A DNA stretch of 64,000 nucleotides from Planctomycetota bacterium (GTDB lineage: Bacteria > Planctomycetota > PLA2 > JAEUHO01). Each line of letters opens with the position of its first letter. Position 1 is the stretch's first letter. The notes beneath the pieces were generated by a model. It worked only from the letters and a program-made list of their open reading frames with translations. It did not search any database and was not told the DNA's origin. The position numbers were made by a program, and so were the translations under genes. This document shows, piece by piece, positions 15,821-44,807 of this stretch. The stretch lies in the NCBI GenBank assembly GCA_965222115.1, contig CBDCTJ010000007.1, positions 2,452,691 through 2,516,690 of the forward strand, read 5' to 3'.

Positions 15821-16000
15821 GCACGCGCGTGGTTGTGACGAACACCATGACAACGTCGGCTCTCCATCGGGCGTATAGCTGTGATGCAGGGGAACGCGCC
15901 ACCATGAATGAGGCGCCTCGTGTCACTACCCCGTCTCGTTGGACGCCCGACTGTCACGCGCGTGACGAATCAATTGCCATACGCGCACGAACGAAAGAAC

Positions 16001-16023
16001 CCTCCGGCGCACCGCGCCGGAGG
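16001..16023 (-). terminator. candidate intrinsic terminator downstream of the HU gene
   Basis: Perfect hairpin CCTCCGGCGC-acc-GCGCCGGAGG; on the minus strand it is followed by GTTCTTTCGTT. Lies ~85 nt past the HU stop. Confidence 0.4.
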
Positions 16024-16106
16024 GCTCGGGAAACTCAGTCCGAAACAACTCGGTCAGAAACAACATGGTCTACCCAGTTGCGGAAAGGCTATGCGTTGTG
16101 GAAAGG

Positions 16107-16382
16107 CTACGGCTTGAGCTTTTCCTTGAGGGCTTTCCCCGCCCGGAACGTAACGCCCACGGACGCAGGGATTTGGATGCGCGCCCCGGTTTGGGGATTC
16201 GTACCCATTCGCGCTTTACGCTCGGAGCGGCGGAACGTTCCGAAGCCAAGAATGGCAACATCCCCTCCGCTCACGAGGCCGTGGGTGACGGACTCGACAA
16301 ATGCGTTGAGCGCGCGCTCGGCTTCGGCCTTGCTTGAGCCCAAGCGACCTGCCATCGCCTCTATTACTTCGGCTTTGTTCAT
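16107..16382 (-). CDS. hup: HU family nucleoid-associated DNA-binding protein
   Basis: 91-aa product MNKAEVIEAMAGRLGSSKAEAERALNAFVESV...ILGFGTFRRSERKARMGTNPQTGARIQIPASVGVTFRAGKALKE with the HU beta-arm signature; only the 3' 276 nt of the longer track ORF is real. Confidence 0.9.
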   Translation of the reverse strand: MNKAEVIEAMAGRLGSSKAEAERALNAFVESVTHGLVSGGDVAILGFGTFRRSERKARMGTNPQTGARIQIPASVGVTFRAGKALKEKLKP

Positions 16383-16490
16383 GGATCCTCCAGCGGCGCG
16401 ACCCCGGTGGGGCTCGCGTGACAACCCGAATCCTAGCCAACACTTGGGCCGCGGAGCACCGGAATTCGAGACTGCCCTGAGGTCGCAGGC

Positions 16491-18803
16491 GTGAAGCAAT
16501 GGACGCTGCGGGCCGGCATCCTCCTCTGTGTGGGCCTCGCCCTGGCCGATTTGCAACCAATTCCCATCGGTGACCCACCGCCTCCCAGGCTGATTCTTGA
16601 CGTTTCCGCAAGCATGGGTCCCGCCGCTCAAGAGCATCCGGATGACATAAAATACGGTTATCCAGTAACTTATGTCGCATCCAGGGCGGCGGATATGCGC
16701 CTAGGGCAAGCCCCGCCCCAAGTAGGAACGGGCGCGACGCGGCTCGGAGAGGCCATTCGAAGGGCGCCCGAGGGTACAACCTTGATTTTGGTGAGCGACG
16801 GATTGGATACCGATGGCGATGCCATCATGGCGTCCCGTGACCACCACCAAAAAGGCGGTCGCGTCTTCACACATCCGCCCAAATCCAGCGTTGCAGACGT
16901 GGGTTTGACCTCGCTGCGGGTGATTTCCGAGCGGCCTCGGGCCACATTCGAAGCCGAGCTTCATGCGACGACTTCCGGCGAAGCCCGACTGACACTTCAG
17001 CGTGAAGACCGAATTGCATTGGAGCGGACCCTCTCATTCGTGGCGGGCGAGACGAGGACCGTTGAGTTGGTGGATACCGTGCCCGTTGCCCGGGATGCGC
17101 CGCGAGCGCGCTACCGCGTTCGTCTAACGGTTGGCGCTGAGACGCCCAATGACATCGCCGAAAACGACGAGCTTAACGTTGTGCTTCAAGCCGGGACGCG
17201 ACGCGCCCTGTGGTGGGGCGATCCCAATCTCGATCGCGATGCGTTGGCCCAGCGATCGGATGTCGCCATTCAGGTGGTCGACGTGTTGCGAGCCGCCGAA
17301 GTACGCGCCGCCGATGTTCTCGTAGTCTCGAACATCCCCTACTACGAGATTCGAGGACACACCGACGTCATCGAGTCATTTGTGGCGCGCGGCGGAAGCC
17401 TGCTCATGCTTGGAGGGCCCGACGCTTATGCAGGAGGTGGTTGGGGAGGGACGCACCTCGAGGAGCGTCTGTCGGCGCTGCAATCCAAGCGATCCGATCG
17501 AACCGCATTGGCACTCGTTCTTGCGCTTGATCACAGCGGGAGTATGGCGGGTGGCGCACTCCAGCGATTACGCGAATCGGTGCGGACCGCGGTTGCAGGG
17601 CTCGCACCCGATGAACGGCTTGCGGTCTTGCCTTTCTCTTCCGGTCGCGATGCCACCCTGTTGACGCCGGGGTTCGTTTCGCGCGACGACACGGCGGCGG
17701 TTGAAACGTTGCTGCATGCGCTAGATGGATTGGAGGCGCGAGGGAGCACGCAGTTACTTCGTGCCATACAAGCGTCGGCGGCTCACCTGCGAGATGTGGA
17801 TGCACGCGAGCGACGGGTGGTACTGCTCAGCGATGGCGATCCCGACCACGAGTTGAGTGAATCGGAACTCGAAGCCACACGGAAGATCTTGGTTGAAGAG
17901 CAAATCGGGTTCGGCGCACTTGTCGTGGGCATGAAACGCGTGGCCGATCGCCTTGTGACGTTGTCGTCCAATCCCAAGGATGTGGTGTTGCTGCGCCAGC
18001 CCGGCGCCTTTCCCGATTCGCTCCGACGACAGTTGCAACGTCGTCGTCGCAGTAAGGAACGTGTCAATCCTCCCATCACGCTAGTGATCGATGACGCTAC
18101 TCGTTGTCCCATCGATGCGAAGCTTACGATTCACTTTGCACATCGTCTGAGCGTCCATCCACAAGCCATTCGCATTGCACGGTTGACCGCCGGCCGCGGT
18201 CGAGAGTTGCTTCCCTTTGCCGCAGAGCGGCGGGTGGGGGCGGGCACCGTCGTGTCGGTGGCCTGGGGCCCTGAAGGTGAGCGCTCCATAGACCACGCAC
18301 GCGCCACGGACGCGTTGCTGCCGCTGGTCGTTCGCCTTGCCGCGCGCTCGGATCGCGGTCTCGCGGCCGAGATCAATGGAAACGAACTCATGGTTGTGGC
18401 GCCATTTGCAGCGAGCCTCGGTGTCTTGTCGCTGCTAGATGGCGAAGAACGGCCTGTGGGCGAGCTAATTGAACGTGAACCTGGCATGTTTGTTGGACCC
18501 ATCCCGCTCGCCGACGGACTGTCGATTCGCCATGGGGACGCCCGGCACACACTGCGTCTGCCGGCGCGGCCCGCGCCCGAATTTCGTCGCATTGGCACCG
18601 ACGAGATATCGCTCATGCGCATTGCGGATGCCGGTGGCGGGCGCCTACTGCAACGTGGGCAGTCGCCGCCACGCGCCGAGACGTTTCGCGGTTCCTCGTG
18701 GGCGCCGTGGTTTCTTCTCGCGGCGCTATTGCTCTTCGTGTGGGAACGTCACGAGTCAAACACCGCCAAACGTATGGCGCTTGGTGATGCGCTTGCCGGA
18801 TGA
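16491..18803 (+). CDS. von Willebrand factor A (VWA) domain protein, two VWA/MIDAS modules, signal peptide and C-terminal TM
   Basis: N-terminal signal sequence LRAGILLCVGLALA; MIDAS-like DxSxS motifs LILDVSASMG and LALDHSGSMAG; C-terminal hydrophobic WAPWFLLAALLLFVW; GTG start. Confidence 0.7.
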   Translation: MKQWTLRAGILLCVGLALADLQPIPIGDPPPPRLILDVSASMGPAAQEHPDDIKYGYPVTYVASRAADMRLGQAPPQVGTGATRLGEAIRRAPEGTTLILVSDGLDTDGDAIMASRDHHQKGGRVFTHPPKSSVADVGLTSLRVISERPRATFEAELHATTSGEARLTLQREDRIALERTLSFVAGETRTVELVDTVPVARDAPRARYRVRLTVGAETPNDIAENDELNVVLQAGTRRALWWGDPNLDRDALAQRSDVAIQVVDVLRAAEVRAADVLVVSNIPYYEIRGHTDVIESFVARGGSLLMLGGPDAYAGGGWGGTHLEERLSALQSKRSDRTALALVLALDHSGSMAGGALQRLRESVRTAVAGLAPDERLAVLPFSSGRDATLLTPGFVSRDDTAAVETLLHALDGLEARGSTQLLRAIQASAAHLRDVDARERRVVLLSDGDPDHELSESELEATRKILVEEQIGFGALVVGMKRVADRLVTLSSNPKDVVLLRQPGAFPDSLRRQLQRRRRSKERVNPPITLVIDDATRCPIDAKLTIHFAHRLSVHPQAIRIARLTAGRGRELLPFAAERRVGAGTVVSVAWGPEGERSIDHARATDALLPLVVRLAARSDRGLAAEINGNELMVVAPFAASLGVLSLLDGEERPVGELIEREPGMFVGPIPLADGLSIRHGDARHTLRLPARPAPEFRRIGTDEISLMRIADAGGGRLLQRGQSPPRAETFRGSSWAPWFLLAALLLFVWERHESNTAKRMALGDALAG

Positions 18804-19662
18804 AATGATGGCGAGCGATATGCCACTTCGCGTTCCCACCATCCGCGCGCTCGCGTTCTCGGTTCCAATCGCACTTTTGTTCGTGCTGGCCGGTTGCCAA
18901 TCGGGCTCTGTGGCGGGCAAGGCGGATGGGGAGCTTGAGCGCAAGCCCTCCGATCGCAAGCTGGCAAAGCGCAAGGCTGCGAAGTCGCGATCGTTCTACT
19001 TGGGCTCAAAGGAGACCCAGGCATCGATCGCCCGCGACATTGAAGCGCTCGCCACCGCCTCGCCCGATCAGCATGCGACGATTCACCGTCGGCTTGTGGG
19101 TCGGGGGGAAGCATCCGTGCCCAAGCTCATGAAGGCGCTGACGCACCAAAGTCCACGTATCCGTATGCGCGCAGCGTACTCACTCGGCAGGTTGAACGAC
19201 GTACGATCATTCGATGCATTGGCAGCCGCGCAGCGGGATACCGATCCCGCCGTGGCGTTTGAGGCCGCAACGGCATTGGCTCGCTGCAAAGACGACCGCG
19301 GGTTGCCGCTGTTGATTCGCGGGCTGTCCCATGCGAAGGCCACAACGCGTGCTAGGTGTATGCAAGTACTCAATGAATGCACGGGTGAGACGTTCGGCTT
19401 TGTTGCCAACGACCGCTTGGAGGATCGGGAAGCAGCGATTGCGCGTTGGCAAGGGTGGCTCGACCGACGCCGCTACGAACTCTACGACCACCATCGTGAA
19501 GAAAGTGAGTCGTCACGCGCCAAGCCGGGTGCTTCAGCGAGCGCGGACGCGGATTCAGATGGCCTGGGTCTCCCCATTGCACCGCGTAAAGGTCCATCGA
19601 ACCAACCTGTCGATGAGCCGCCGCCCGTTGTTGGCTACGGCAGCCCGGATGGGGACGGGTAG
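18787..19662 (+). CDS. HEAT-repeat lipoprotein
   Basis: Signal peptide plus lipobox (ALLFVLAGCQSG); HEAT/PBS-lyase-like repeats (SPRIRMRAAYSLGRLND, DTDPAVAFEAATALARCKD, AKATTRARCMQVLNE); acidic low-complexity tail. Start ambiguous (18787, 18805 or 18820). Confidence 0.5.
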   Translation: MRLPDEMMASDMPLRVPTIRALAFSVPIALLFVLAGCQSGSVAGKADGELERKPSDRKLAKRKAAKSRSFYLGSKETQASIARDIEALATASPDQHATIHRRLVGRGEASVPKLMKALTHQSPRIRMRAAYSLGRLNDVRSFDALAAAQRDTDPAVAFEAATALARCKDDRGLPLLIRGLSHAKATTRARCMQVLNECTGETFGFVANDRLEDREAAIARWQGWLDRRRYELYDHHREESESSRAKPGASASADADSDGLGLPIAPRKGPSNQPVDEPPPVVGYGSPDGDG

Positions 19663-19667
19663 GTCCT

Positions 19668-20204
19668 ATGCAATCTCGCGAGCTTGCCATCGTCGTCTGT
19701 TTTGTGTTGGCCTTGTGCATTTCGGCATGCGGTGCAAAGCAAACCGGGCCCAAAAAGTCGCCCGCCGAATGGGTGGAACTCGCCGATCGTTATATGACGG
19801 CTAAGTCATGGCGCGAGGCGGGCAATGCGTATGTCTATGCGTTTCGACTAATCGATCCGGTACCGAGTGCATTGCAAGAAAGAGCGCTGCTTGCATTTCG
19901 GGCTGGCATGTCATTTGGCCGCGAAGCGCGTCACACAGACCCAAAGCTCGCGTTTACTTATGCGCGCGCAGCGTCGTTTTGGTTGACGCATACGTTGCGA
20001 CTGCAGCCCAAGATGCGTCAAGCGCTCTATGAACGAGCGTTGTTGTACGAAACAAAGCTTGAAGGCATCGAAAATGTCGATCACGCCAAGCGCGACTACA
20101 AGGCGTATGTAGAGGCTACGGAGGCGTTGGGTGATGAACTTCCCGAGTCGGAACGTGGTCGAGTGAACCATGCAAGGGAACGGTTGGTGGCGCTGGGGAG
20201 GTAG
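19668..20204 (+). CDS. lipoprotein, unknown function
   Basis: Signal peptide and lipobox (CFVLALCISACG); helical, TPR-like composition. Confidence 0.45.
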   Translation: MQSRELAIVVCFVLALCISACGAKQTGPKKSPAEWVELADRYMTAKSWREAGNAYVYAFRLIDPVPSALQERALLAFRAGMSFGREARHTDPKLAFTYARAASFWLTHTLRLQPKMRQALYERALLYETKLEGIENVDHAKRDYKAYVEATEALGDELPESERGRVNHARERLVALGR

Positions 20205-20224
20205 GCCGCTGGACGCGGCCTGAG

Positions 20225-20545
20225 ATGGGGACGCTGCATTGGGAAGAAGCCTCTCACCAAGGGCAACCGTGGAATGGGGAGCACCCTGTGTAGTCGGTTC
20301 TTGGCCGCGCGCAGAGGCGCAGAGGGCGCAAGCGTTGGGGAGTGCAATTGGCGAGTGCGGATGTTCTTCGATGGCGGGGTATTGGCTGGAGAAAAGGAAG
20401 AAGAAGCTCACACGAAGAACGCTAAGGAACGAAGCGCAGGCGCCGCAGACTAAACATTGAGCGTGCGTGGAATTGCGTTGTAGCGTGCCGCGGCTTGAAG
20501 AAGAAGGGTCTCACCAAGGGCACCAAGTTCACCAAGCGCACTCGT
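20225..20545. repeat. left copy of an imperfect inverted repeat flanking the 20801..22096 gene
   Basis: Reverse complement of 20235..20445 aligns with 22128..22345 (e.g. CGCCTGCGCTTCGTTCCTTAGCGTTCTTCGTGTGAGCT vs CGCCTGCGCTTCGTTTCTTAGCGTTCTTAGTGTGAGCT; CCAACGCTTGCGCCCTCTGCGCCTCTGCGCGCGGCCAAGAACCGACTA vs CAAACGCTTGCGCCCCTCTGCGCCTCTGCGGTCTCTGCGCGCGGCTAAAACCGACTA); internal sub-repeat TCACCAAGGGCA at 20255 and 20510. Confidence 0.8.
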
Positions 20546-20800
20546 TGAAAGGGGCGCTACGTTCCAAGTCGGTCCGATGTAGGAAAATGGCTCCAACGGG
20601 GCCAACGTTGATAGCCCAGGATGCACATCGAGCGCAGCGAGATGAAATCCAGGGTTAATGGCCAAACAAGAAATTCGGCGCCCTGCAGGGGCGCAAGTGG
20701 GCTTGAAGCAACAGACTTGGTGGAATGAGACGCTACGCAGTAGTGTATGGACTGACGTTGAGATTGACTCAACACTATCTAGTCGAGGCCCTTGCGCAAA

Positions 20801-22096
20801 ATGTGGCGACCTAAATGGCCCACCGTTTCCAAATGTGTCAAAGCGGCCTTTGGTGCATTACTTGTGCTGTTCATCGCGTCGTCCTCGGCTTGTGGCGATT
20901 GCAAGAACACCGAGACAGTTGTCGAATTAGAGAGGCACGCGGCGGGCGGCGACTGTTCCTCTGCGTATCAACTCGGTCGCGTTGTGCCTCACGTGGCGAT
21001 GCGTCTATTGCGAAATGCCACCGACAGTTCGATACGACGCACGCTCTTGGAAGGACTTGTTGCCAGCCGCTTCTCGAAACCTGATGGGTACATTCAGTTG
21101 CTAGATGAACTGCTTGACCATGAGGACATTGAGACCACACATGCCGCGTTGCGGGCACTAGCCGTGGCGGGGTACCAACATACGACGGCGCTGGTCGCGG
21201 TGACTCGTGTTGCAGAGAGCGAGACGTATTCTATTTCGTTTCGTATCCGCGCCATTGAGTGGCTAGCGAGGCATGGCAAGCGAGCATCGAGTTTTCATCC
21301 GAAGCCCGAGGTGATCTTCTCAACGAAGCATCCGTACATTGTGCGTGCCTATGCGAAATTGGTTCGTTGGTCTGTCATTGATCACTTGACTCTCGGGAGC
21401 GCTTTCGCTGAGTGGCTCTCACGAAATCCAACTAGTGGCGCCAATCCAACATCACTATTTTTTGAGCACTTGCCTGACAATTCAAACTCAAGGCTTGTCG
21501 AGTTGGCGCTTGACTACTTGTCGCGAGGACATCCCGTGGATGTTGTTGCAGCCTTGTACTTCGCGCGACGATCCCGGGTATTGCGACGAAAGGCAAAGCG
21601 TCAGATAGAACTAAAGATGGATGGCGGGGACGCACTTGCATTGGCTGCTGCGGAAGCAAGTGCGGACTTCGATCGTCCGCGGGCGCTAAAATTCTTGAAA
21701 GACGTAGTGCGCGTAGACAAGCAACTGCCCCCGGGCTACGTCGTGGATGCGATCGGACAACTGACTCGATTGTTGGAGCCCAGCGAGTTGGCCGAGTTCC
21801 TTGAAACGGTCACAAGTCCCAGCCCGTGGGTACGAATCAGGATTGCGGTTGCGCTGGCGAATGCGGGCTCGACGCCTGCGTCATCTGCAATAAACGCGCT
21901 CGTCGGGGAGATTCTGAAGCCCGCCCCCAGGAGAACGCCGTTTAACGCTAGTCAAGCGGGGCTCGTTCTAGAGTGCCTGGCATTGACGAATCTTCAGTCA
22001 ACGGATCTCGTACCACTCATCAAGCTCCGTTGCAAAGTCGATCCGTATGTCAGAGAAGCCATTACTGAGCTAGTCATCGACGTGGCGCATCGGTAG
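20801..22096 (+). CDS. lipoprotein with HEAT/ARM-like helical repeats; lower GC than neighbours
   Basis: Signal peptide and lipobox (AAFGALLVLFIASSSACGDC) from ATG 20801; helical repeats (ETTHAALRALAVAG, PWVRIRIAVALANAG); first 69 nt are ~51% GC against ~62-65% elsewhere, with TTA/CTA/ATA codons. Confidence 0.5.
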   Translation: MWRPKWPTVSKCVKAAFGALLVLFIASSSACGDCKNTETVVELERHAAGGDCSSAYQLGRVVPHVAMRLLRNATDSSIRRTLLEGLVASRFSKPDGYIQLLDELLDHEDIETTHAALRALAVAGYQHTTALVAVTRVAESETYSISFRIRAIEWLARHGKRASSFHPKPEVIFSTKHPYIVRAYAKLVRWSVIDHLTLGSAFAEWLSRNPTSGANPTSLFFEHLPDNSNSRLVELALDYLSRGHPVDVVAALYFARRSRVLRRKAKRQIELKMDGGDALALAAAEASADFDRPRALKFLKDVVRVDKQLPPGYVVDAIGQLTRLLEPSELAEFLETVTSPSPWVRIRIAVALANAGSTPASSAINALVGEILKPAPRRTPFNASQAGLVLECLALTNLQSTDLVPLIKLRCKVDPYVREAITELVIDVAHR

Positions 22097-22127
22097 CGTC
22101 CAGACCTCCGCTCGTTTCGGCCCGCTA

Positions 22128-22450
22128 CGCCTGCGCTTCGTTTCTTAGCGTTCTTAGTGTGAGCTATTTCTTCAAGCACCGTTCCGCCACCTCCAAACAC
22201 CCGCATTCACCGACTGCCATCCCAAACGCTTGCGCCCCTCTGCGCCTCTGCGGTCTCTGCGCGCGGCTAAAACCGACTAAACAAGAAACTCCTCGTTCTC
22301 CGGTTGCGCTTGGTGATCTTGGTGTCCTTCGTGAGAACCTTCTTCTTCAAACGGCGCCACACAACCAATCACGTACGCTCCCGCCAAACAACGCACCCCA
22401 ACGCTTGCGCTCCTCTGTTTGGCGCACAAAGAAACCCGGCCTCCCCAACG
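22128..22450. repeat. right copy of the imperfect inverted repeat flanking the 20801..22096 gene
   Basis: See left copy; contains a 9-bp internal duplication (GGTCTCTGC) and a second partial unit CCCCAACGCTTGCGCTCCTCTG at ~22396. Confidence 0.8.
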
Positions 22451-22508
22451 GGAAGACCGGGTGCGGTTCGATTCACACTGCGCGAGCGCAGCGACGAAAC
22501 TGTGTCAA

Positions 22509-23090
22509 CTAAAAGATGCGCGGGGCATTGCACTGTTCGTGAATGCTGTTGCACACTTCCGGTTGTAGGCGCAGGCCGTGGGCGAGTTGCTTGAGGTACT
22601 GCGCTTCTTTGTTCTGATCGAGGTCCAGAGTCAGTAGCGAGAAACCGTAGACCTGCTGCTCAAGTCCAAGCGGGATTTCCCAGGCGAACTCTTTGACGTC
22701 GAGCGGGCGAGCGAATTCTTCGCGCAGGAACTGCACTTCGGCTTCGGTGACGTCACCGAGTTGCTTCAGAATCGCGGTCTGCTCATTGTCGTCGAGCTTG
22801 CCATCGGACTTGGCGGCGTTCACCATGGCGCGCACAAGAATTTTGGCCTGTGCGTTATCAAGCTCGCTCTTTGGGTGTGCGGGTGCCTGAGGTGCGCCAC
22901 GGCTTTGCTCGTAGCGCGAATACGCGTCACGGGCCACACGACCAAAGTCGTCGCGTTGACGCGGCTGTGCCGGAGGAGCCGCCGCTGCTTTCTTATCGCC
23001 GCCCAAAAGGCCTTCGAGGATCTTTCCAATGCCGCCGCCGGATTGGGACTTCTTCTTGAGAAGACCACCGAGAATTTCTGCCATATCCAT
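22509..23090 (-). CDS. DUF533/TerB-like protein
   Basis: Gly-rich N-terminus (ILGGLLKKKSQSGGGIGKILEGLLGG) and C-terminal TerB-like helical region (AKILVRAMVNAAKSDGKLDDNEQTAILKQLG); family assignment from memory of architecture only. Confidence 0.45.
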   Translation of the reverse strand: MDMAEILGGLLKKKSQSGGGIGKILEGLLGGDKKAAAAPPAQPRQRDDFGRVARDAYSRYEQSRGAPQAPAHPKSELDNAQAKILVRAMVNAAKSDGKLDDNEQTAILKQLGDVTEAEVQFLREEFARPLDVKEFAWEIPLGLEQQVYGFSLLTLDLDQNKEAQYLKQLAHGLRLQPEVCNSIHEQCNAPRIF

Positions 23091-23532
23091 TTCGTACGTA
23101 CTCCAATGACGTTCAGGTCCGTCGCGCAGATTCGCGTGACGTGCTCGTTACTGTATGTCCGCTCCGGGTCCGGGGTGGGATTTGTGCATTTCTCATTTTC
23201 TAGGGCAAGTGCTTGTTCGCCGGGCGTGGGTCACCTCACGCAGAGGCGCTATGTGGCAAAGGCGCAAGGGGAAATCGGTGCCGTCTCCTACGTGGCCAGG
23301 TTTGAGGGGCCCAACTCCGCAAAGAACGAGATCCACACTCGTGACTACCGTCATCTTCGGAGGCTGAGCAACCGGGTCGGGCAATGGATCGGGCGACAGA
23401 TTAAGAATCAGCAAAACGTCCAGTTGAGCATCGCTTCGCTCCACTACATGCATCGCTCTGCGCCTCTGCAACGCGGCGTCTCCGCGTGAGGTAAATCGCG
23501 TCCAACGACCGCACTTCCCTCGCAAGCCGAAC

Positions 23533-25948: not shown

Positions 25949-26167
25949 AGGCGTCCTCGCGCGGCGGTTTCATCGAATCGCCCGGCTGCGCTCGATGGAA
26001 GGGGCATACTTGGATCTAGCGAGACGTGGGACCTTCGCCCAGCCCCGCCACGGGCTCGGTAAGTCTACCGATGCCGGGAGACCATGACGGCAGGCGTGCG
26101 ACCCGGCGGCGCGAATTCTGTCCGACGTCCATTGGGGACAAGCCCACCTCGGCGCGATAGTCCCTCC

Positions 26168-27157: not shown

Positions 27158-27210
27158 GTTTCGCCGGATGATTCGTGCGCCAACGCTGAGATCGTCCTTC
27201 CGGAACCGAT

Positions 27211-27738
27211 TTGGACGTCGTGTTTGACCTTGCTTGGGTCCGCCCCGAGAATGCGACGGTGCTACCGAATGCTCGACCCCCTCGCCGCGGACTGACGCGC
27301 TTGCGCAAACTCGCTTGCGGGCCGCTGCTGTTGCTGATCCTTTGTGTATTGGGGGGGTGTCAGAGTGAAGAAGCATTTGCGCCGCGGCCTTTGGATCAAG
27401 CGATCAAGCATCCCAGTCCCGGCGTTCGCGTGGCCGCGGTGCAGCGTGCGATACAGTCCGGTGACACAAGCGAGGTGCCGGAACTTATAGAAATGCTCGA
27501 CGATGAGGACCCAACAGTGCGGATGCTTGCATCGTCATCGCTCAAGCGCATCACGGGTCGAGACACCGGCTATCTGCCGTATGCATCCCCAGAAGTTAGG
27601 CGTTCGCAGCGGGATGCGTGGCGTTTGTGGTGGGCGTCACAACAGCAAATCGGTGACTCGGCGAGTTCGCCTCCCCTGTATCCAGTCTCAAAGCCAATGA
27701 CCATGGATTCGCCACATGGGGAGGGCATGGGTGAGTGA
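27211..27738 (+). CDS. small HEAT-repeat lipoprotein
   Basis: Signal peptide and lipobox (LACGPLLLLILCVLGGCQSEE); HEAT-like repeats (HPSPGVRVAAVQRAIQSGD, DEDPTVRMLASSSLKRITG). Start uncertain (TTG 27211, GTG 27259 or TTG ~27301). Confidence 0.5.
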   Translation: MDVVFDLAWVRPENATVLPNARPPRRGLTRLRKLACGPLLLLILCVLGGCQSEEAFAPRPLDQAIKHPSPGVRVAAVQRAIQSGDTSEVPELIEMLDDEDPTVRMLASSSLKRITGRDTGYLPYASPEVRRSQRDAWRLWWASQQQIGDSASSPPLYPVSKPMTMDSPHGEGMGE

Positions 27739-28168
27739 GCCGCAACAAATCCAGACAGAGCGGCTTGAGACTTCTCTCACCTCCAATCCACGGTGGCTTC
27801 CCGTCGTGCGTGGCATAGTGAGCGAAGCCGCCGGCGTGGTGGGACTCGATCGCGAGGCACAAGAGTCAATCGCTTTGGCGGTCAATGAAGCGTGGACCAA
27901 CGTGATTCGACACGTGTACGGCGGGCGCGAAGACGCACGCATTGACCTGGCAATTGAACTGCACCCCGACCGCCTCGCGACGTATATTACCGACTACGGC
28001 ACGTTTGTGGATCCCGGAACCATTCGGTCACGGAGGCTCGAGGACGTACGCCCCGGCGGCATTGGTGTTCACCTTATCAAGACCACCATGGACGACGTGG
28101 AGTACAAGTTGAACGAGCACGGGGGAACAACATTGTCCATGGTTCGCTATCTCGAATCGCATGCGTAG
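27716..28168 (+). CDS. anti-sigma regulatory factor / serine protein kinase (RsbW/SpoIIAB-like GHKL ATPase)
   Basis: HATPase_c layout: N-box ALAVNEAWTNVIRHVYGG, G-boxes ITDYGTFVDPGT and RPGGIGVHLIKTTMDDVEY; ~150 aa as for RsbW. Confidence 0.7.
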   Translation: MGRAWVSEPQQIQTERLETSLTSNPRWLPVVRGIVSEAAGVVGLDREAQESIALAVNEAWTNVIRHVYGGREDARIDLAIELHPDRLATYITDYGTFVDPGTIRSRRLEDVRPGGIGVHLIKTTMDDVEYKLNEHGGTTLSMVRYLESHA

Positions 28169-28225
28169 CAATTCGGCTACGTAGCGAATCGGTTGGCGCA
28201 CGCCACATGCTATGAAGGAAACCCC

Positions 28226-28567
28226 ATGAAAGTCACCAGCGAATCCCACGGGAACGGATCCGTATTTGTCGTTGAAGGTCACTTGGACATGGGGTCTACC
28301 TCAACGCTGCGCAATGAGTTGCGCGGCGCGCTCAAGCGCAAAAGCACACCGTTGGTCGTGGATCTCACGGATGTCGCGTTTATTGATTCAAGCGGCCTCG
28401 CCACGTTGATTGAGGCGCTGCAGTCGGTCTCGCACTATGGGGGTCGCATGTGCCTGTGTGGTTTGCGGCCTGAAGTCAAGCGCCTATTTGAACTTGCCCA
28501 TCTCGGAAGCATTTTCGAGGTAAAGGAAACCCGCGACCAAGCGCTTGGTCTCACGGGCCCCGCGTAG
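28226..28567 (+). CDS. STAS-domain anti-sigma factor antagonist (RsbV/SpoIIAA-like)
   Basis: STAS fold with phosphorylatable-Ser motif VDLTDVAFIDSSGLATLIEAL; good SD (GAAGGA) before ATG 28226. Confidence 0.75.
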   Translation: MKVTSESHGNGSVFVVEGHLDMGSTSTLRNELRGALKRKSTPLVVDLTDVAFIDSSGLATLIEALQSVSHYGGRMCLCGLRPEVKRLFELAHLGSIFEVKETRDQALGLTGPA

Positions 28568-28685
28568 CCATTTTCAAAATCGATTTAGATCAGGGGCAGA
28601 GAGAAACCGCCGAGTGAACTTGTGTAAGGAGTAGCGTTTTGCCGCACGGTCGCTCGCGCGTTCCGCTCGGGAAGGGACCACACTC

Positions 28686-40788: not shown

Positions 40789-42966
40789 ATGCGGCGCCAA
40801 AAGACCCTCACCGTCATGTTCACCGATATCTCGGGGTTTACGAAGCACACCGAGACCGTTACGCGCGATGAATTGATGGCGCGGCTCGACGAGCACAACG
40901 CCCTACTCATGCCCATTGTGCGCCACTTTGAAGGTCGTATTGTGAAGTCCATTGGCGATGCGCTCATGATCGTCTTCGAAAGTCCAACGAACGCCGTGCA
41001 ATGTGGGATGTTGATGCAACATCGATTGGCGCGCCACAACCGTGGCAGGGTTGAATTCGAACAGATACACATCAAGGTTTCGCTCAACGCTGGCGAAGTC
41101 ACAGTAACCGAGAACGATGTCTTTGGCGATTGCGTCAATGTGGCGGCAAAGATTGAGAAGGCCACACGGCCCGACGAAATCTACTTCACGGAATCGGTCT
41201 TCCTCGCCATGAACAAAGCGGAGGTGCCCAACGTCTTCGTAAAGAACTTTCGACCTAAGGGTGAACAGAGCCATGAGATCAAGCTCTACAAGGTCATCCA
41301 AGATGTAACCAACGAACAGTACGCACGTCTTATCCGCGATACGGACATTAAGGACGACGATCCATCCGACGCGCTTGAGCTATCGGATCTTGCAGGCAGC
41401 GATCTTCCTAGCGGCCACGACTCCTTGGCGGAACTCATTGCCGACGAACGGGCACGTTCGCGAAAGAACCTTTTGCTGGCAACGGCCTTAGGCGCCTTGT
41501 TGCTCGGCGGGCTCGTCGTAGGGGGACTGGCGCTGTTTAGTGGCAGCAAAGGCCCCACCGCTGCCGATCGTACGACCGACGCCGTTCGTGCCTACTTGGC
41601 CAAAGGCAATGTGGAGGGCGCCCGATCCGCGATCGCCAATTTTGGAGCCGACGGCGGGAGTCAAGAACGCATTGCGCAGTTGCAGCGCGAGATTCACGCC
41701 TATCAGGGTGGTGAATCGGTAAAGCGCATCAAGGCGCTACTTGCCGACGACAACGTGGACGATGCCCGTTCACTTGTCGGTAGCAATCGCGAGTTCATTC
41801 CGACCGCGTTGCTGACTCACATCGATGCGCTAGCGGCGGCGGAACAGGCGCTACGCGACGGCGACGCGGAGGCGGCGCGTAAGGGCTTGCAGGGTGCGGA
41901 CCCGACGTTCACTCCGAGGAACGCCTACGCGGCGTGCAAGAAGCGAATCGAGGCCATCGATACCGCGTGGCACGTGCATGAACACTCGGAATCGGTCGAT
42001 GACGCAGAGCGAGCAATCGAGGTCCTGTCGGGGGCATTCGGAGACGACACCCATCATCCTGTGGCCACGCGTATTTTGGGCGACATGATCATTCGTTCTG
42101 TTGGCATGACAGCTCGGACGAGTGGGCGCAAGGCGATCCGCGAGCACTTTGACGCGCTCATGAAACGCTTTCCAGGTATCAAAGATCGCACGCGTATTCG
42201 CCGCGAAGTGCAGCTCCACGCGCTGTGGTTTTACACGAGTGACTACGAGGCTCGACGTCGCTGGCGCGGTCGATTTGACAGCCAGAGTCAACGGGAGATT
42301 GCTACGCTTCGCGAGCTGGGCAAAGGCGATGCCGACTTTTTGTTTCGACTTGGCGTCACGCGCCACCGGATTTCGCGAAAGAACGGACTCGGCATATCGG
42401 ATGGCGCGCAAGACATTGAGAGCGCCATGAAGTTGGATCCGCGCCTCATTGAAACGCGTGCCGACGAGTTGTACCCGATTGCGATCGATTGGCTACGTTG
42501 GGTGTCGTCTCCCGATTCACTGGCCCACAAGCTCGTTACGGGCCCCTTCAAAGAGCGTGCGCGCGAGCATCTTTTTGCCCGTGCCTTTGCTCCCTACGGT
42601 GGCAAGCGCGACGACGCACCGCGGCCTGAAGAACGCGCCAATGCTGTTGCGGCGTTGGTTGCCATGAATGCACCGATCGAAACCGAACAAGCCGTGGAGT
42701 TTGTGACCAACAACTGGAAGACCGTGCTCACGGGTCGCAATCCGATCATTTCCATCGATGTCTTTGCTGCTCTCTTTGCCCGCAAGGACATGGCCTACGA
42801 GTACTTCGAACGCTTGGCAGGCGACATCAAACGGATCCAAACCGAACTGGGCGCCAAGCGAGGCAAGTTCAGCGCCTACAAGCACGCCCGCGATCGCATC
42901 CTCGCTCTCCGCCGCACCCTCATCGACGCCCACCCCGCTCACGCCAAACGCTTCGCCGCAAACTAG
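40789..42966 (+). CDS. class III adenylate/guanylate cyclase: N-terminal catalytic domain, single TM, large C-terminal helical domain
   Basis: Cyclase motifs LTVMFTDISGFT, VKSIGDALMIVF, GDCVNVAAKIE; hydrophobic helix LLLATALGALLLGGLVVGGLALF at ~aa 225-250; ~470 aa of helical/TPR-like sequence after it. Confidence 0.75.
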   Translation: MRRQKTLTVMFTDISGFTKHTETVTRDELMARLDEHNALLMPIVRHFEGRIVKSIGDALMIVFESPTNAVQCGMLMQHRLARHNRGRVEFEQIHIKVSLNAGEVTVTENDVFGDCVNVAAKIEKATRPDEIYFTESVFLAMNKAEVPNVFVKNFRPKGEQSHEIKLYKVIQDVTNEQYARLIRDTDIKDDDPSDALELSDLAGSDLPSGHDSLAELIADERARSRKNLLLATALGALLLGGLVVGGLALFSGSKGPTAADRTTDAVRAYLAKGNVEGARSAIANFGADGGSQERIAQLQREIHAYQGGESVKRIKALLADDNVDDARSLVGSNREFIPTALLTHIDALAAAEQALRDGDAEAARKGLQGADPTFTPRNAYAACKKRIEAIDTAWHVHEHSESVDDAERAIEVLSGAFGDDTHHPVATRILGDMIIRSVGMTARTSGRKAIREHFDALMKRFPGIKDRTRIRREVQLHALWFYTSDYEARRRWRGRFDSQSQREIATLRELGKGDADFLFRLGVTRHRISRKNGLGISDGAQDIESAMKLDPRLIETRADELYPIAIDWLRWVSSPDSLAHKLVTGPFKERAREHLFARAFAPYGGKRDDAPRPEERANAVAALVAMNAPIETEQAVEFVTNNWKTVLTGRNPIISIDVFAALFARKDMAYEYFERLAGDIKRIQTELGAKRGKFSAYKHARDRILALRRTLIDAHPAHAKRFAAN

Positions 42967-43159
42967 GCTCTGTCTGAAAGCTCCTCTACTGCGCAATCCG
43001 ATCCTCTCGCTGCGAGTCGCGTCCCTTCGAAATTGCCGTCCTCGACGTGAACAGACCACGCCTGCGGGCCAATTTCTTGGTCCATCGACTCTCGCATCGG
43101 TCTCCCGCGTTTATTGAAGAGACACGGGCTCGTCACGAGGCTTTTCAGGCAGGGCCTAA

Positions 43160-43339
43160 TGCGCCACAAATACCAGGTATAGTTGGCGCACGGGCCCGTA
43201 GACGCCCATTCGTTGGGCTCGCCCCGGCGCGCGATACTCGTCGTGCGCCACAGAAACCAGGTATTTTTGGCGCATGCCGATAGGCGAGCGCGCTACGCGA
43301 CATGGCGGTGCGCCAGAAAAACCAGGTATTTTTGGCGCA
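43160..43339. repeat. three tandem copies of a ~31-bp palindromic repeat in the cyclase / lpdA convergent intergenic region
   Basis: TGCGCCACAAATACCAGGTATAGTTGGCGCA (43160..43190), TGCGCCACAGAAACCAGGTATTTTTGGCGCA (43244..43274), TGCGCCAGAAAAACCAGGTATTTTTGGCGCA (43309..43339); same family as 10199..10229. Confidence 0.8.
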
Positions 43340-43343
43340 CGGA

Positions 43344-44753
43344 TTAGGGGTTGAGAATGTGGATGGCTTTGCCGTGAACGGCTTCGGCGGCTTCCATGAG
43401 GGATTCGGGCCAGGTGGGGTGGGCGTGGACCGTGAGGGCAATGTCTTCGCTAGTGGCGCCCATTTCGATGGCGAGCGCGGCTTCGGCGATGAGGTCGGAA
43501 GCTTGGTAGCCAACGCCGGACACGCCCAGTACTTCATCGGTTTCGGGATCCGCAATGATCTTTACGAATCCGTCGGTGGCACTCACGGAGAGCGCGCGAC
43601 CCAAGGCTGTGAACGGGAACTTGCCCACCTTTACGTTACGCCCCGCTTCTTTGGCCTCGTGTTCCTGTAGTCCTACGGTTGCGACTTCGGGATGGGTGAA
43701 CGTTGCGGCGGGCATGGCACGCACGTCGTAGACGCTACTCGTGTTCCCGGCCGCGTGCTCGGCTGCCACAATGCCTTCCTTGCTTGCCTTGTGGGCCAGC
43801 CACGGCAATCCGGCGACGTCACCAATCGCGTAGATGTGTGGCACATTGGTCTGTCGGCTTTCGTTTACGGCGAAGTGACCCGTGTCGTCGATTTGTAAGC
43901 CGGCCGCATCGCGACCCACGCGATCGGAATTGGGTTTGAAGCCAATCGCACACAGGACGACTTCGGAGGGTATCGACAGTTCTTTCCCCTTCTTATCCTT
44001 TGCTTTCACGATGAGGTTTTTGCCGGTGCCTTCGATGGCTGTGGCACCGGTTTCCTTATGAATCTTCCCCTTGAGTTTCTTGATCGACTTCTCGACCACC
44101 TTTACGAGGTCGGGATCCGTACCGGGAAGGAGCGACTTGGTCAGCTCAATCACGGTCAACTTGGAACCCAAGCGCTGGAAGACAGTCCCTAGCTCTAGGC
44201 CAATCACGCCGCCGCCAATTACCGTGAACGAATCCGGCACCCAATCGATGTCGAGCGCCTCGCGATAGGTCATGACATTGCCGCCGATGGGCAGAAACGG
44301 CAGGGTGGCCGCACGTGCTCCGGTAGCCACAATGCACTTGTCAAATGATACCGCCTGCGTCTTGCCGTCGCTGTCCTTCACAGCGAGAGCCTTCGGCGAC
44401 GTGAACTCGGCATGTCCGTGAATCGTGGTCACGCCGTTCTTACTAAGCAAGAAACCAACACCTGTTGTGAGGCGATTGACGATGCCCGACTTCCACTCCT
44501 GGAGCTTCTTCCCGTCTACCTCGACATCACCAACGACAACGCCCATGGCATCGGCCTTGCGAATCTTGTCCACCAAGCCACTTGCGTAGATCAAGCTCTT
44601 TGAGGGAATGCAACCCACATTGAGACACACGCCACCAATCTTGTCCTCTTCGATGACGGCAGTCTTGAGTCCGAGTTGACCTGCACGAATGGCGGCCACA
44701 TAGCCGCCCGGCCCAGATCCAATCACGACAAGATCAAAGTGTTGATCAGCCAT
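43344..44753 (-). CDS. lpdA: dihydrolipoyl dehydrogenase (E3)
   Basis: FAD motif DLVVIGSGPGGYVAA; redox disulfide GGVCLNVGCIPSK; C-terminal HAHPTWPE interface motif. Confidence 0.9.
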   Translation of the reverse strand: MADQHFDLVVIGSGPGGYVAAIRAGQLGLKTAVIEEDKIGGVCLNVGCIPSKSLIYASGLVDKIRKADAMGVVVGDVEVDGKKLQEWKSGIVNRLTTGVGFLLSKNGVTTIHGHAEFTSPKALAVKDSDGKTQAVSFDKCIVATGARAATLPFLPIGGNVMTYREALDIDWVPDSFTVIGGGVIGLELGTVFQRLGSKLTVIELTKSLLPGTDPDLVKVVEKSIKKLKGKIHKETGATAIEGTGKNLIVKAKDKKGKELSIPSEVVLCAIGFKPNSDRVGRDAAGLQIDDTGHFAVNESRQTNVPHIYAIGDVAGLPWLAHKASKEGIVAAEHAAGNTSSVYDVRAMPAATFTHPEVATVGLQEHEAKEAGRNVKVGKFPFTALGRALSVSATDGFVKIIADPETDEVLGVSGVGYQASDLIAEAALAIEMGATSEDIALTVHAHPTWPESLMEAAEAVHGKAIHILNP

Positions 44754-44807
44754 TGAGAACTCCTCACGCGACGCGCGTAGCGCCTCGTGCATGAAAGAAC
44801 AGATTCG

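Follow-up and report, generated by a model that had tools for sequence, protein, structure and literature searches.

MITEs are non-coding, intergenic sequences of 100-400 nt that can pair around genes, each copy having terminal inverted repeats and target-site duplications. In mobile insertion cassettes and composite transposons, such as MIC231 of Bacillus cereus, inverted repeats bracket a passenger gene that has no transposase with it. Invertible switches and shufflons (fimS, hin, Bacteroides invertons) rely on near-identical repeats of ~10-30 bp and a tyrosine or serine recombinase encoded close by, while in the staggered-break model, known from Drosophila inversions, inverted duplications flank the inverted segment. 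REPs are stem-loops of 20-40 bp which are tagged GTAG or CGTC, occur in many copies and are associated with RAYTs (Di Nocera et al. 2013, PMC3733652). REP, BIME and REPIN sequences are non-coding and intergenic, often lie 3' of genes, are clustered and present in both orientations, and may flank genes; their proposed roles are in termination, mRNA stability or recombination (PMC3733652).

In the window analysed here, a stretch of 64,000 nucleotides (64 kb) of planctomycete DNA, two non-coding arms in inverted orientation enclose a gene for a HEAT-repeat protein. Our verdict is that the arms are an ordinary rearrangement scar or a pair of interspersed repeats. The fuller reading that we prefer, and to which we give a little less than an even chance, is that they are diverged copies, with partial tandems, of a ~255-nt non-coding intergenic repeat, which would be interspersed and would have been deposited around the arrival of the HEAT gene.

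Results

Homology and anatomy of the arms

The locus is a convergent junction between a secreted-protein/lipoprotein gene block and a GNAT/arginine-biosynthesis block (Table 1). Smith-Waterman alignment of 20205-20800 with the reverse complement of 22097-22510 gave a score of 139, as against 20.6 +/- 2.3 (maximum 27) for 200 shuffles and 24 for a direct-orientation control, so that the inverted similarity claimed by a first-pass annotation of this DNA was borne out in formal alignment. Two blocks were resolved by blastn, block A (20254-20442 against 22316-22128; 72.8% over 202 columns, E=3e-27) and block B (20459-20540 against 22380-22305; 82.9% over 82 columns, E=2e-16), with identity in the ungapped columns of 149/174 (85.6%) and 68/76 (89.5%) respectively. 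Since the similarity continues at these E values through the non-motif body, the arms are true homologs which have more than a motif in common. The left arm reads A then B and the right arm rcA then rcB; thus, while the inverted similarity of the proposed ~300-bp repeat pair is real, its blocks are not colinear as a single repeat, because each arm consists of one ~255-nt unit together with a partial tandem copy. The longest exact matches between the arms are 17 nt (the m2 core) and then about 15 nt, and conservation is highest at the inner end, in m3 (91% over 46 nt). The extra 9-bp unit that had been noticed in the right copy, CGCAGAGAC, was recovered in the alignment, as were sub-repeats within the arms (families D1-D3 and D8, and period-8/9 arrays).

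Table 1. Features of the junction, in window coordinates
Feature	Position	Strand	Description
Left outside gene, lipo178	19668..20204	+	178-aa lipoprotein, canonical lipobox ISAC, no Pfam family
Left arm, unit U1	20205..20458	+	purine-rich strand on +; GC skew +0.23 to +0.28
Module m1 of U1	20242-20267	+	GGAAGAAGCCTCTCACCAAGGGCAAC; then body
Module m2 of U1	20301-20340	+	CGCAGAGGCGCAGAGGGCGCAAGCGTTGGGG
Module m3 of U1	20396-20442	+	GAAGAAGAAGCTCACACGAAGAACGCTAAGGAACGAAGCGCAGGCG
Left arm, truncated second tandem unit U2	20459..20575	+	pre + m1 (CACCAAG x3) + start of body
Unique region 5' of HEAT gene, inside the repeat pair	20576..20800	+	no similarity elsewhere in the window
Enclosed HEAT gene	20801..22096	+	431-aa HEAT-repeat protein; N-terminal signal peptide, lipobox-like SSAC
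Right arm, full unit U'	22128..22380	-	purine-rich strand on -; GC skew -0.26
Modules of U'	m3 22173-22128, m2 22270-22221, body, m1 22345-22305, pre 22380-22346	-	m2 with one extra 9-mer
Right arm, fragment U0	22381..22433	-	m2-like piece 22417-22396 (AGCGCAAGCGTTGGGG) in small hairpin
Terminator-like hairpin	22434..22462	-	13-bp stem and T-rich tail, downstream of DUF533
Right outside gene, DUF533/TerB-like, with 106-bp upstream region	22509..23196	-	gene 22509-23090; Pfam DUF533 at 2.5e-36
Third intergenic region	23217..23508		small inverted pair that shares the arms' motif class

The unit is composed of modules of the 'GAAGAAG-CTCAC-(9-mer)n' type, the first of which begins 39 nt past the lipo178 stop codon, and GAAGAAG-N3-CTCAC stands in direct orientation at both ends of the unit, in m1 and in m3. 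The closest match to the outer portion of the right arm is the truncated unit U2, and the hairpin in U0 has its arms at 22382-22401 and 22405-22424. Within the unique region, the palindrome GCGCCCTGCAGGGGCGC (20677-20694) was terminator-like on the minus strand in our scan. The small pair in the third intergenic region (23217-23266 and 23459-23508) is 50 nt long and 72% complementary, with the two pieces 192 nt apart and a core of ACCTCACGCrGAGrCGC; the piece at 23454-23470 (-) is the m2 core with 2 mismatches, and similarity to the arms is marginal (z=4.7). The partial units U2 and U0, together with this related pair in the next intergenic region, make up a pattern that is typical of interspersed or clustered repeats.

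Other copies of the unit and a wider motif class

No further copies of the ~255-nt unit were found in the 64-kb window or in 33 kb of related contigs. An exact-pattern scan for m1 in 185,579 genomes, the source genome not being among them, gave 34 single chance matches in unrelated phyla that agreed in the pattern only, and a scan for the exact m3 pattern gave 0 matches in JGI metagenomes. Matches to the m1 pattern in viral contigs were dismissed as chance matches within coding sequence. A profile of two arm ORFs searched against 1.84e9 protein representatives returned one spurious, repetitive match and no arm-like ORF. As the searches found no other copies, the term interspersed is conjectural rather than demonstrated for the ~255-nt unit, and the copies could be purely local.

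At least 120 metagenome contigs, with GC contents of 36-76%, contain the 17-mer at the core of the modules, CGCAGAGGCGCAGAGGG. Of the occurrences of this 17-mer, 34/55 lie 1-70 nt past a stop codon on the same strand, next to assorted housekeeping genes, and some contigs hold several. Placement after stop codons, the number of contigs and the several occurrences per contig indicate that class members behave elsewhere as interspersed intergenic elements. Pfam searches with 142 ORFs adjoining the motif in metagenome loci gave 127 families, mostly housekeeping, none of them with more than 2 members; on these counts the idea that 9-mer arrays accompany GxxExxY or four-helix-bundle genes was rejected. 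We defined the 9-nt-periodic class 'tCAC-(CGCNGAGGN)n' by at least 2 units of CRCNRAGRN after (C/T)TCAC or TAAC, often with an AAG-rich run before them, the purine-rich strand lying downstream of a same-strand stop codon. Modules m1, m2 and m3 all fall within this definition, and their orientation to lipo178 and DUF533 also fits. The arms have no more than 22-32 nt in common with the widespread class, which speaks for membership of a motif class and not for homology of the whole unit. The class has no Rfam entry and no description that we could find in the searchable literature, and is thus apparently both widespread and undescribed.

It is quite unlikely that the arms are large, gene-separated members of this class and work either as a hot spot for recombination or insertion or as cassette ends for mobilisation in trans. 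Under such a reading the HEAT gene would sit in the 'loop' of a giant element, whose marks would be an AAG-rich run, (C/T)TCAC, tandem CRCNRAGGN units and, often, hairpins after stop codons. If true, it would explain the capture of an orphan gene and the inversion of a neighbour at such sites. A recurrent layout with a gene in the loop is unsupported, with 7 distant inverted partners among the 120 loci listed, mostly in element-rich contigs.

The arms are non-coding and unstructured

Folding energies, computed for both strands of both arms, were no better than those of shuffled sequences (z = +0.85, +0.11, -0.57 and -0.01), and the arms had no match in Rfam, either at the gathering threshold or at E<=1. 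Wobble bias between the arms was absent (10 vs 7), and transversions made up 16/33 of the substitutions. A structured RNA was rejected on these values, there being no compensatory bias either. Hidden coding sequence or a pseudogene was likewise rejected: NCBIfam assigned no protein family to 10 arm ORFs, the eight indels in block A (of 1, 1, 2, 2, 3, 4, 8 and 9 nt) are not confined to multiples of 3, and the mismatches, at 13/5/7 by alignment position mod 3, are not focused on one position. The indels, the spread of the mismatches and the lack of wobble bias also mark the arms as decaying.

On its pyrimidine strand m3 forms a small hairpin, GCGCT-N9-AGCGT and then TCTT, which is conserved and lies 32 nt past the stop codon of the HEAT gene, and ~30% of the occurrences of the wider motif class form hairpins of a purine arm, a loop and a pyrimidine arm. 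Both observations could be taken to favour a cis-acting RNA, in which the left arm, as 5' UTR, would pair with the right arm, as 3' UTR, of the HEAT mRNA in a long duplex and thereby control stability or translation, or in which antisense transcription from the right arm would run into the HEAT gene; with read-through from lipo178, both arms would indeed lie on one plus-strand transcript. We regard this as very unlikely, as neither strand has a G-U-compatible bias, the eight indels break the pairing register, folding is on a par with shuffles, and no promoter-like sites were found in a scan whose models do not cover planctomycete promoters.

The enclosed gene

The 431-aa protein matches Pfam HEAT_2 at 1.2e-8, and a search for homologs among 5.8 billion proteins (5.8e9) retrieved only the protein itself. 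A single-sequence AlphaFold2 model is all-alpha with ~25 helices, at low confidence (pLDDT 60). The earlier description of the product as a lipoprotein is plausible: a signal peptide and a lipobox-like motif are present, while the motif itself is non-canonical. PADLOC models of defence systems gave nothing beyond generic HEAT matches, and tblastn and blastn searches against plasmids gave no match that would point to a foreign, plasmid-borne origin. We also considered orthology to the HEAT_2 genes that adjoin GNAT in outgroups, and rejected it, since the enclosed gene has no BLASTP similarity to them. It is HEAT291, and not the enclosed gene, that weakly matches these outgroup genes.

The atypical codon usage of the HEAT gene is real and moderate. 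Its GC3 of 58.1% is the lowest of the 39 window genes, its CAI-like value of 0.625 is the second-lowest codon adaptation in the window, and the TTA/CTA/ATA codons, reported before as rare codons used in this gene, reach 32.5 per 1000 (median 10.2), a load that is exceeded in one gene only out of 38. The GC content of ~51% given for the gene holds approximately for 21200-21599 only (~52%), while the gene overall has 55.2% and the window 58.7%. The gene appears to carry its own upstream region of 360 bp within the repeat pair.

Comparison with relatives

The closest available relative (L041), in which the flanking proteins are 83-93% identical, has the gene order lipo178 - 232 bp - DUF533 - GNAT, with neither the arms nor the HEAT gene, and thus lacks the entire segment 20205-~22433 (2.2 kb). 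Its lipo178 ortholog is 70% identical over 96 aa, and nucleotide homology with the window stops at ~20183. DUF533, which has 93% amino acid identity to the L041 copy, differs between the window and L041 in its orientation relative to GNAT, according to both the gene table and blastn. The inverted segment is 770 bp long, the terminator-like hairpin next to U0 marks its approximate left end, and L041 also has an analogous hairpin after DUF533. A Smith-Waterman search of the L041 spacers for arm-like remnants gave z <= 1.8, bar one match of z=3.9 near the terminator. The outgroups L042 and L044 have HEAT_2-HEAT_2-GNAT without DUF533 or lipo178, and DUF533 homologs elsewhere stand in other gene contexts. 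The differences between these relatives and among the DUF533 contexts mark the junction as a variable spot. The idea of a gene inserted between repeat copies, as a cassette present in one genome and absent from another, is supported by the lack of arms and gene in L041, by the orphan status of the gene and by its codon usage.

That the 2.2 kb moved whole, as a non-autonomous mobile cassette with the HEAT gene as passenger and with arms that serve as the inverted ends for a transposase from another locus, is unlikely. The whole segment is indeed absent from L041, DNA specific to the window begins at ~20190-20204 and stops at ~22433, in each case no more than about 10-30 nt from where the arms end on the outside, and the passenger would be an orphan with atypical codon usage. 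However, arms that fill the intergenic spaces make this coincidence of boundaries trivial, and they are too decayed to be recent. The outer ends are not the best conserved and the outer blocks are tandemly rearranged; no target-site duplication or other direct repeat flanking the arm ends was visible by eye, the ends being ill-defined through the partial tandem units and divergence; and a second copy of gene or cassette was absent from the 5.8e9 proteins, plasmids and metagenomes. Pfam scans of 55 window ORFs detected no integrase, resolvase or transposase domain, and no recombinase or transposase domain was present in any ORF of at least 180 aa or in the ten gap ORFs scanned, the ORFs of 27158-28685 being annotated via synteny with L041 only, in agreement with the earlier remark that such enzymes are missing from the 64-kb window. 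The suggestion of a non-autonomous cassette in the first-pass annotation thus finds no positive evidence, there being no clean outer TIRs, no target-site duplication visible by eye, and no transposase or second copy.

The same annotation had offered an invertible segment, and a programmed flip of the DNA between the arms by a site-specific recombinase, switching expression, could be envisaged since the inverted repeats enclose the gene of a surface or secreted type of protein and an evolutionary inversion lies next door. We find this proposal unsupported and consider it extremely improbable. Identity between the arms is 73-86%, with many indels, which is unlike short, near-perfect crossover sites; the window lacks a recombinase; and the inversion of DUF533 is a fixed difference between species-level relatives, which is not evidence of switching. 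Moreover, as the 360-bp upstream region is inside the pair, a flip would not obviously uncouple the gene from its promoter.

The inversion of DUF533 also bears on the view that the arms are a by-product of rearrangement, namely an inverted duplication of one local sequence that arose, with no dispersed family involved, in the same inversion or insertion events by which DUF533 was flipped and the HEAT gene came to its place. The route could be a staggered-break inversion, or a template switch at a palindrome lying between the two convergent genes. Copies of the unit are known at this locus only, the inverted segment is directly adjacent, it is bracketed by a weak inverted match (26 nt, 73%), and the surrounding spacers cannot be aligned with L041, whereas at least one other spacer (25949-26083) falls in an aligned block. 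Against this, the arms enclose the HEAT gene and not the segment shown to be inverted, L041 has no trace of the sequence supposedly duplicated, and neither the partial tandem units on both sides nor the small pair in the third intergenic region would be predicted; two genomes are also too few to reconstruct the order of events. On balance we consider such a by-product somewhat unlikely.

Discussion

The homology and anatomy of the arms, their non-coding and unstructured nature, their absence from L041, the flipped neighbour and the lack of enzymes are shown by the results above, whereas we infer that the ~255-nt unit is, or was, an interspersed element without a present function, as well as the order of events that follows. 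Under the reading we prefer, that of diverged repeat copies, the junction would be a recombination-prone spot at which genes are gained, lost and inverted, and the copies would have landed there as interspersed intergenic elements, with behaviour like that of REPs, BIMEs or MITEs, near the time at which the HEAT gene arrived. The arms have a strong purine/pyrimidine skew, and in each copy the purine-rich strand runs outward from where the adjoining outside gene stops, lipo178 (+) on the left and DUF533 (-) on the right, as is usual for the wider motif class. Because lipo178 and DUF533 converge, the copies look like an inverted repeat around the intervening DNA, namely the orphan, lineage-specific gene for the HEAT-repeat protein and what appears to be its own upstream region. 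The arm copies would now be in passive decay. In appearance the locus is a trace left passively by the gain of a gene and by inversion, and not an active mobile cassette or a DNA switch. The coincidence of the adjacent inversion with the arms suggests a mechanism of rearrangement over one of element insertion, and so counts against the preferred reading. That the inner end, m3, is the best-conserved portion is a further observation which interspersed repeats do not account for, and it counts in the same direction.

Taken alone, the locus is of little importance. It records a variable, rearrangement-prone junction in a poorly sampled, Pirellulales-like planctomycete, with the gain or loss of a secreted orphan protein of the HEAT-repeat type, the flip of a neighbour, and diverged inverted non-coding copies left behind. 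If the unit proves to be mobile or recombinogenic, it would offer a handle on gene acquisition and shuffling without classical IS in the orphan-rich genomes of planctomycetes. The 9-nt-periodic class is a candidate terminator-like or REP-like family across phyla, and merits a systematic study of its own.

Comparison with known systems

The arms resemble REP and BIME sequences in that they are non-coding, intergenic and flank a gene, and the wider 9-nt-periodic class forms hairpins right after stop codons. In contrast to REPs and BIMEs, however, the arms are ~255-nt units without a significant local palindrome, their inverted partners are 1.7-2 kb apart, and the window holds neither a RAYT/Y1-transposase domain nor a further copy of the unit. 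Where the left body has GTAG (TGTGTAGTCGG), the right copy has TTAG, and no such tag adjoins a palindrome. With MITEs the units share their size, their non-coding and intergenic nature and the bracketing of a gene by a pair, whereas the unit ends m1 and m3 are direct and not inverted, the sole inverted pair inside a unit being the 20-nt hairpin at 22382-22424, and no parent IS is known.

Like a mobile insertion cassette, the HEAT gene has inverted repeats around it and no transposase, and is present or absent between related genomes. The locus differs in having no IS-type ends, in tips that are less conserved than the inner m3, and in arms that are long, decayed and tandemly rearranged; the inversion of DUF533 in L041 and the unalignable spacers prevent the reconstruction of a clean empty site. 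Inverted repeats around a gene for a surface-associated protein recall the invertible switches, while the near-identical short repeats and the recombinase of those systems are missing from the locus and the window respectively. Finally, although the strong pair flanks the neighbouring HEAT gene, and the inverted DUF533 segment has the 26-nt weak match only, the locus is like the products of the staggered-break model in that inverted, duplicated non-coding DNA lies near a fixed inversion between close relatives.

Two diverged inverted copies of one repeat unit

The non-coding sequences on either side of HEAT431, the enclosed gene, are related in inverted orientation, as the first-pass annotation had proposed. 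A Smith-Waterman local alignment of 20205-20800 with the reverse complement of 22097-22510 scored 139, compared with 20.6 +/- 2.3 in 200 shuffles and 24 in direct orientation, far above chance. When the left arm was compared with the right arm by blastn, two significant inverted blocks were found, block A (20254-20442 with 22316-22128, 72.8% over 202 columns, E=3e-27) and block B (20459-20540 with 22380-22305, 82.9% over 82 columns, E=2e-16), with ungapped-column identities of 85.6% and 89.5%, respectively. Block A contains eight indels (1, 1, 2, 2, 3, 4, 8 and 9 nt), the 9-nt one being an additional CGCAGAGAC unit and thus the 9-bp duplication earlier noticed in the right copy. No further copies of the arms were detected by blastn in the 64-kb window; from zero extra copies in ~62 kb of window sequence, and assuming random placement in a ~7-Mb genome, we estimate, as a loose bound, that the source genome carries a few hundred units at most.

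Blocks A and B are not colinear as a single inverted repeat, the left arm reading A, B and the right arm rcA, rcB. Multiple alignment yielded a ~255-nt unit, ordered pre, m1, body, m2, mid and m3, which accounts for this block order. The short modules m1 and m3 start alike, with GAAGAAG-N3-CTCAC followed by 9-nt-periodic units such as CACCAAGGN and CACGAAGAA CGCTAAGGA, while m2 reads CGCAGAGGC GCAGAGGGC GCAAGCG. One strand of each arm is strongly purine-rich (GC skew +0.28 left, -0.26 right), and matches to a regular expression of two consecutive units were confined to the arms across the whole window (shuffle expectation 0.17). A small inverted pair in the style of the arms, 72% complementary over 50 nt, lies at 23217-23266 and 23459-23508, between DUF533, the gene right of the pair, and GNAT, the next gene beyond it.

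Features of the repeat pair and the enclosed gene (window positions)
Feature	Position	Strand	Basis or remark
HEAT431	20801-22096	+	431 aa, signal peptide, lipobox-like SSAC
Left unit, near-full	20205-20458		multiple alignment
Left second unit, truncated	20459-~20575		multiple alignment
Right full unit	22380-22128	-	multiple alignment
Right m2-only fragment	22433-22381	-	multiple alignment
Motif-class site	20301-20340
Motif-class site	22221-22270
Motif-class site	23232-23272
Motif-class site	23452-23490

The arms as RNA, coding sequence or switch

Structured RNA was rejected on folding z-scores of +0.85, +0.11, -0.57 and -0.01, and the arms matched no Rfam family, either at gathering score or with the cut-off relaxed to E<=1. 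A coding origin was rejected likewise, every frame being broken by indels and mismatches not being concentrated at one position in three; no ORF of the arms matched a protein family. Selection for RNA pairing was also discarded, the 33 substitutions comprising 10 compatible with G-U pairing in the plus transcript, 7 in the minus transcript and 16 transversions. A Pfam search of 55 window ORFs (every one that reaches 180 aa, plus the principal ORFs in the gaps) found no integrase, resolvase or transposase, in agreement with the absence of such enzymes noted at first; the ORFs are those of a core chromosome (SecDF, YajC, HflX, NadB, MnmA, the arginine pathway, a 2-oxoacid dehydrogenase complex, a TonB-dependent receptor and RNase HII). 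The substitution pattern, indels, fold statistics and lack of a recombinase jointly argue against an RNA-level role of the arms, which we regard as very unlikely, and against a programmed invertible switch, to which we give almost no credence.

A widespread 9-nt-periodic motif class

The exact m1 pattern gave 34 single matches in 185,579 species genomes; these fall in unrelated phyla and their similarity stops at the pattern itself, and they are therefore attributed to chance. The exact m3 pattern had 0 matches in JGI metagenomes. The 17-mer core of m2, CGCAGAGGCGCAGAGGG, was matched in at least 120 metagenome contigs (L046-L165). Among the matches listed, contig GC ranged over 36-76%, the 17-mer was preceded by TCAC, TTAC or ATAA, often after an AAG-rich run, and was followed by more CGC[A/G/T]GAG units. 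These define a very widespread, intergenic motif class, consisting of an AAG-rich run, (C/T)TCAC or ATAA, and tandem 9-nt CGC[A/G/T]GAGGN units. Again among the matches listed, the nearest upstream same-strand ORF ended 1-70 nt before the motif in 34/55, the adjoining genes were assorted housekeeping genes, and a complementary partner lay within 240 nt downstream in 38 of 128 occurrences as against upstream in 8 of 129; the partners form hairpins, in ~30% of occurrences, whose variable positions co-vary between the hairpin arms. No Rfam family covers the class, and its sequence strings were not found by full-text search of the literature.

The arms and the metagenome loci have just 22-32 nt of sequence in common; the arms are members of the class and not whole-unit homologues of those loci. 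The purine strand of the left arm begins 39 nt past the stop of lipo178, the left neighbour gene, and that of the right arm, on the opposite strand, ~90 nt past the DUF533 stop, just beyond a terminator-like hairpin. With respect to its outside gene, each arm is thus oriented as is typical of the class. This motif class is a more intriguing lead than the locus itself.

A variable spot between relatives

Judging by the names of homologous proteins, the organism belongs with the Pirellulales-like planctomycetes. The closest relative among available sequences was a 28-kb ENA contig, L041 (protein identity 83% for GNAT and 93% for DUF533). By blastn, the window is colinear with it from 34518 down to 23570, beyond which L041 has the DUF533 segment (22508-23196) reversed, then lipo178 and its neighbour HEAT291 (20183-19363). 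The order in L041 is lipo178(+) - 232 bp - DUF533(+) - 184 bp - GNAT(-), and in the window lipo178(+) - left arm - HEAT431(+) - right arm - DUF533(-) - 442 bp - GNAT(-). DUF533 is inverted together with its promoter region and terminator (window 22434-23196, L041 11293-11981), being convergent with GNAT in L041 and co-directional in the window, and no arm-like sequence was found in the L041 spacers. Two outgroups (GNAT 61-63% identical) read HEAT_2 - HEAT_2 - GNAT, with DUF533 and lipo178 absent from this position; DUF533 homologues at 70% identity lie in unrelated contexts. The stretch from the HEAT291 ortholog to the 3' end of GNAT therefore varies between genomes. The window and L041, the two close genomes compared, are separated by an inversion and a 2.2-kb indel at the least, in either direction and in either order.

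The arms are genuine, and their explanation is ordinary: at a locus that varies, they represent a repeat that is new and specific to the lineage, of a general kind already known. For their origin we tentatively favour a non-coding intergenic repeat of the interspersed type, present in two copies that are decaying. Each copy would trail one of the two convergent outside genes, lipo178 and DUF533, with the lineage-specific orphan HEAT431 in between and the junction itself prone to recombination. The main rival, in which the rearrangements behind the DUF533 flip also gave rise to the two copies, as an inverted duplication confined to this locus, appears unlikely. A cassette mobilised in trans, one of the possibilities first raised, is more doubtful still, its sole positive evidence being the presence or absence of the 2.2 kb.

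Elsewhere, a 107-nt intergenic sequence (42998-43104) is 82% identical to non-syntenic intergenic L041 7383-7488 and absent from the syntenic window position (~27160-27349); it had no Rfam match at gathering score and could be a small RNA gene of the lineage or else a small dispersed element of another type. Between an adenylate-cyclase-domain gene (40789-42966, +) and a dihydrolipoamide-dehydrogenase-like gene (43344-44792, -), a palindromic unit, GTGCGCCA-N-AAACCAGGTATTTTTGGCGCAC, recurs three times at intervals within 43150-43345 (about 43160, 43244 and 43309); the copies have the look of REP-like stem-loops.

The enclosed gene and its neighbours

HEAT431 matched Pfam HEAT_2 (1.2e-8), and its single-sequence AlphaFold2 model, of low confidence (pLDDT 60), was all-helical and had ~25 helices. 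Among 5.8 billion proteins its only homologue was itself; no paralogue was found in the window or fetched loci, and no plasmid match. The gene is moderately atypical in composition, with the lowest GC3 of 39 genes (58.1%), the second-lowest codon-adaptation score and a TTA/CTA/ATA load of 32.5 per 1000 (median 10.2), which bears out the rare codons first remarked upon. Its GC is 55.2% (window, 58.7%), so that the earlier figure of ~51% does not apply to the gene overall and fits 21200-21599 alone (near 52%).

In the unique region upstream of HEAT431, a perfect-stem palindrome (GCGCCC-TGCA-GGGGCGC, 20677-20694) scans as intrinsic-terminator-like; the site is on the minus strand, which is not expected to carry a gene there. 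Between MnmA and a VWA protein, a 221-aa ORF (15829-16494, +) is unusual in composition, with GC2 (0.649) above GC1 (0.554), and no other gene of the window scores lower in codon adaptation; it has no Pfam family, its exact sequence is absent from the protein collection, and either the call itself or its start may be wrong.

The two genes upstream of HEAT431, HEAT291 (lipobox LAGC) and lipo178 (ISAC), encode secreted proteins or lipoproteins, and HEAT431 therefore fits the local theme, though an orphan in sequence. They belong to a run of secreted or lipoprotein genes at 16491-20204 (a VWA-domain protein of 770 aa, the HEAT_2 protein of 291 aa and the 178-aa lipoprotein). This run resembles Bat/aerotolerance-type VWA-TPR/HEAT clusters, and so HEAT431 may have joined the run as a fast-evolving addition.
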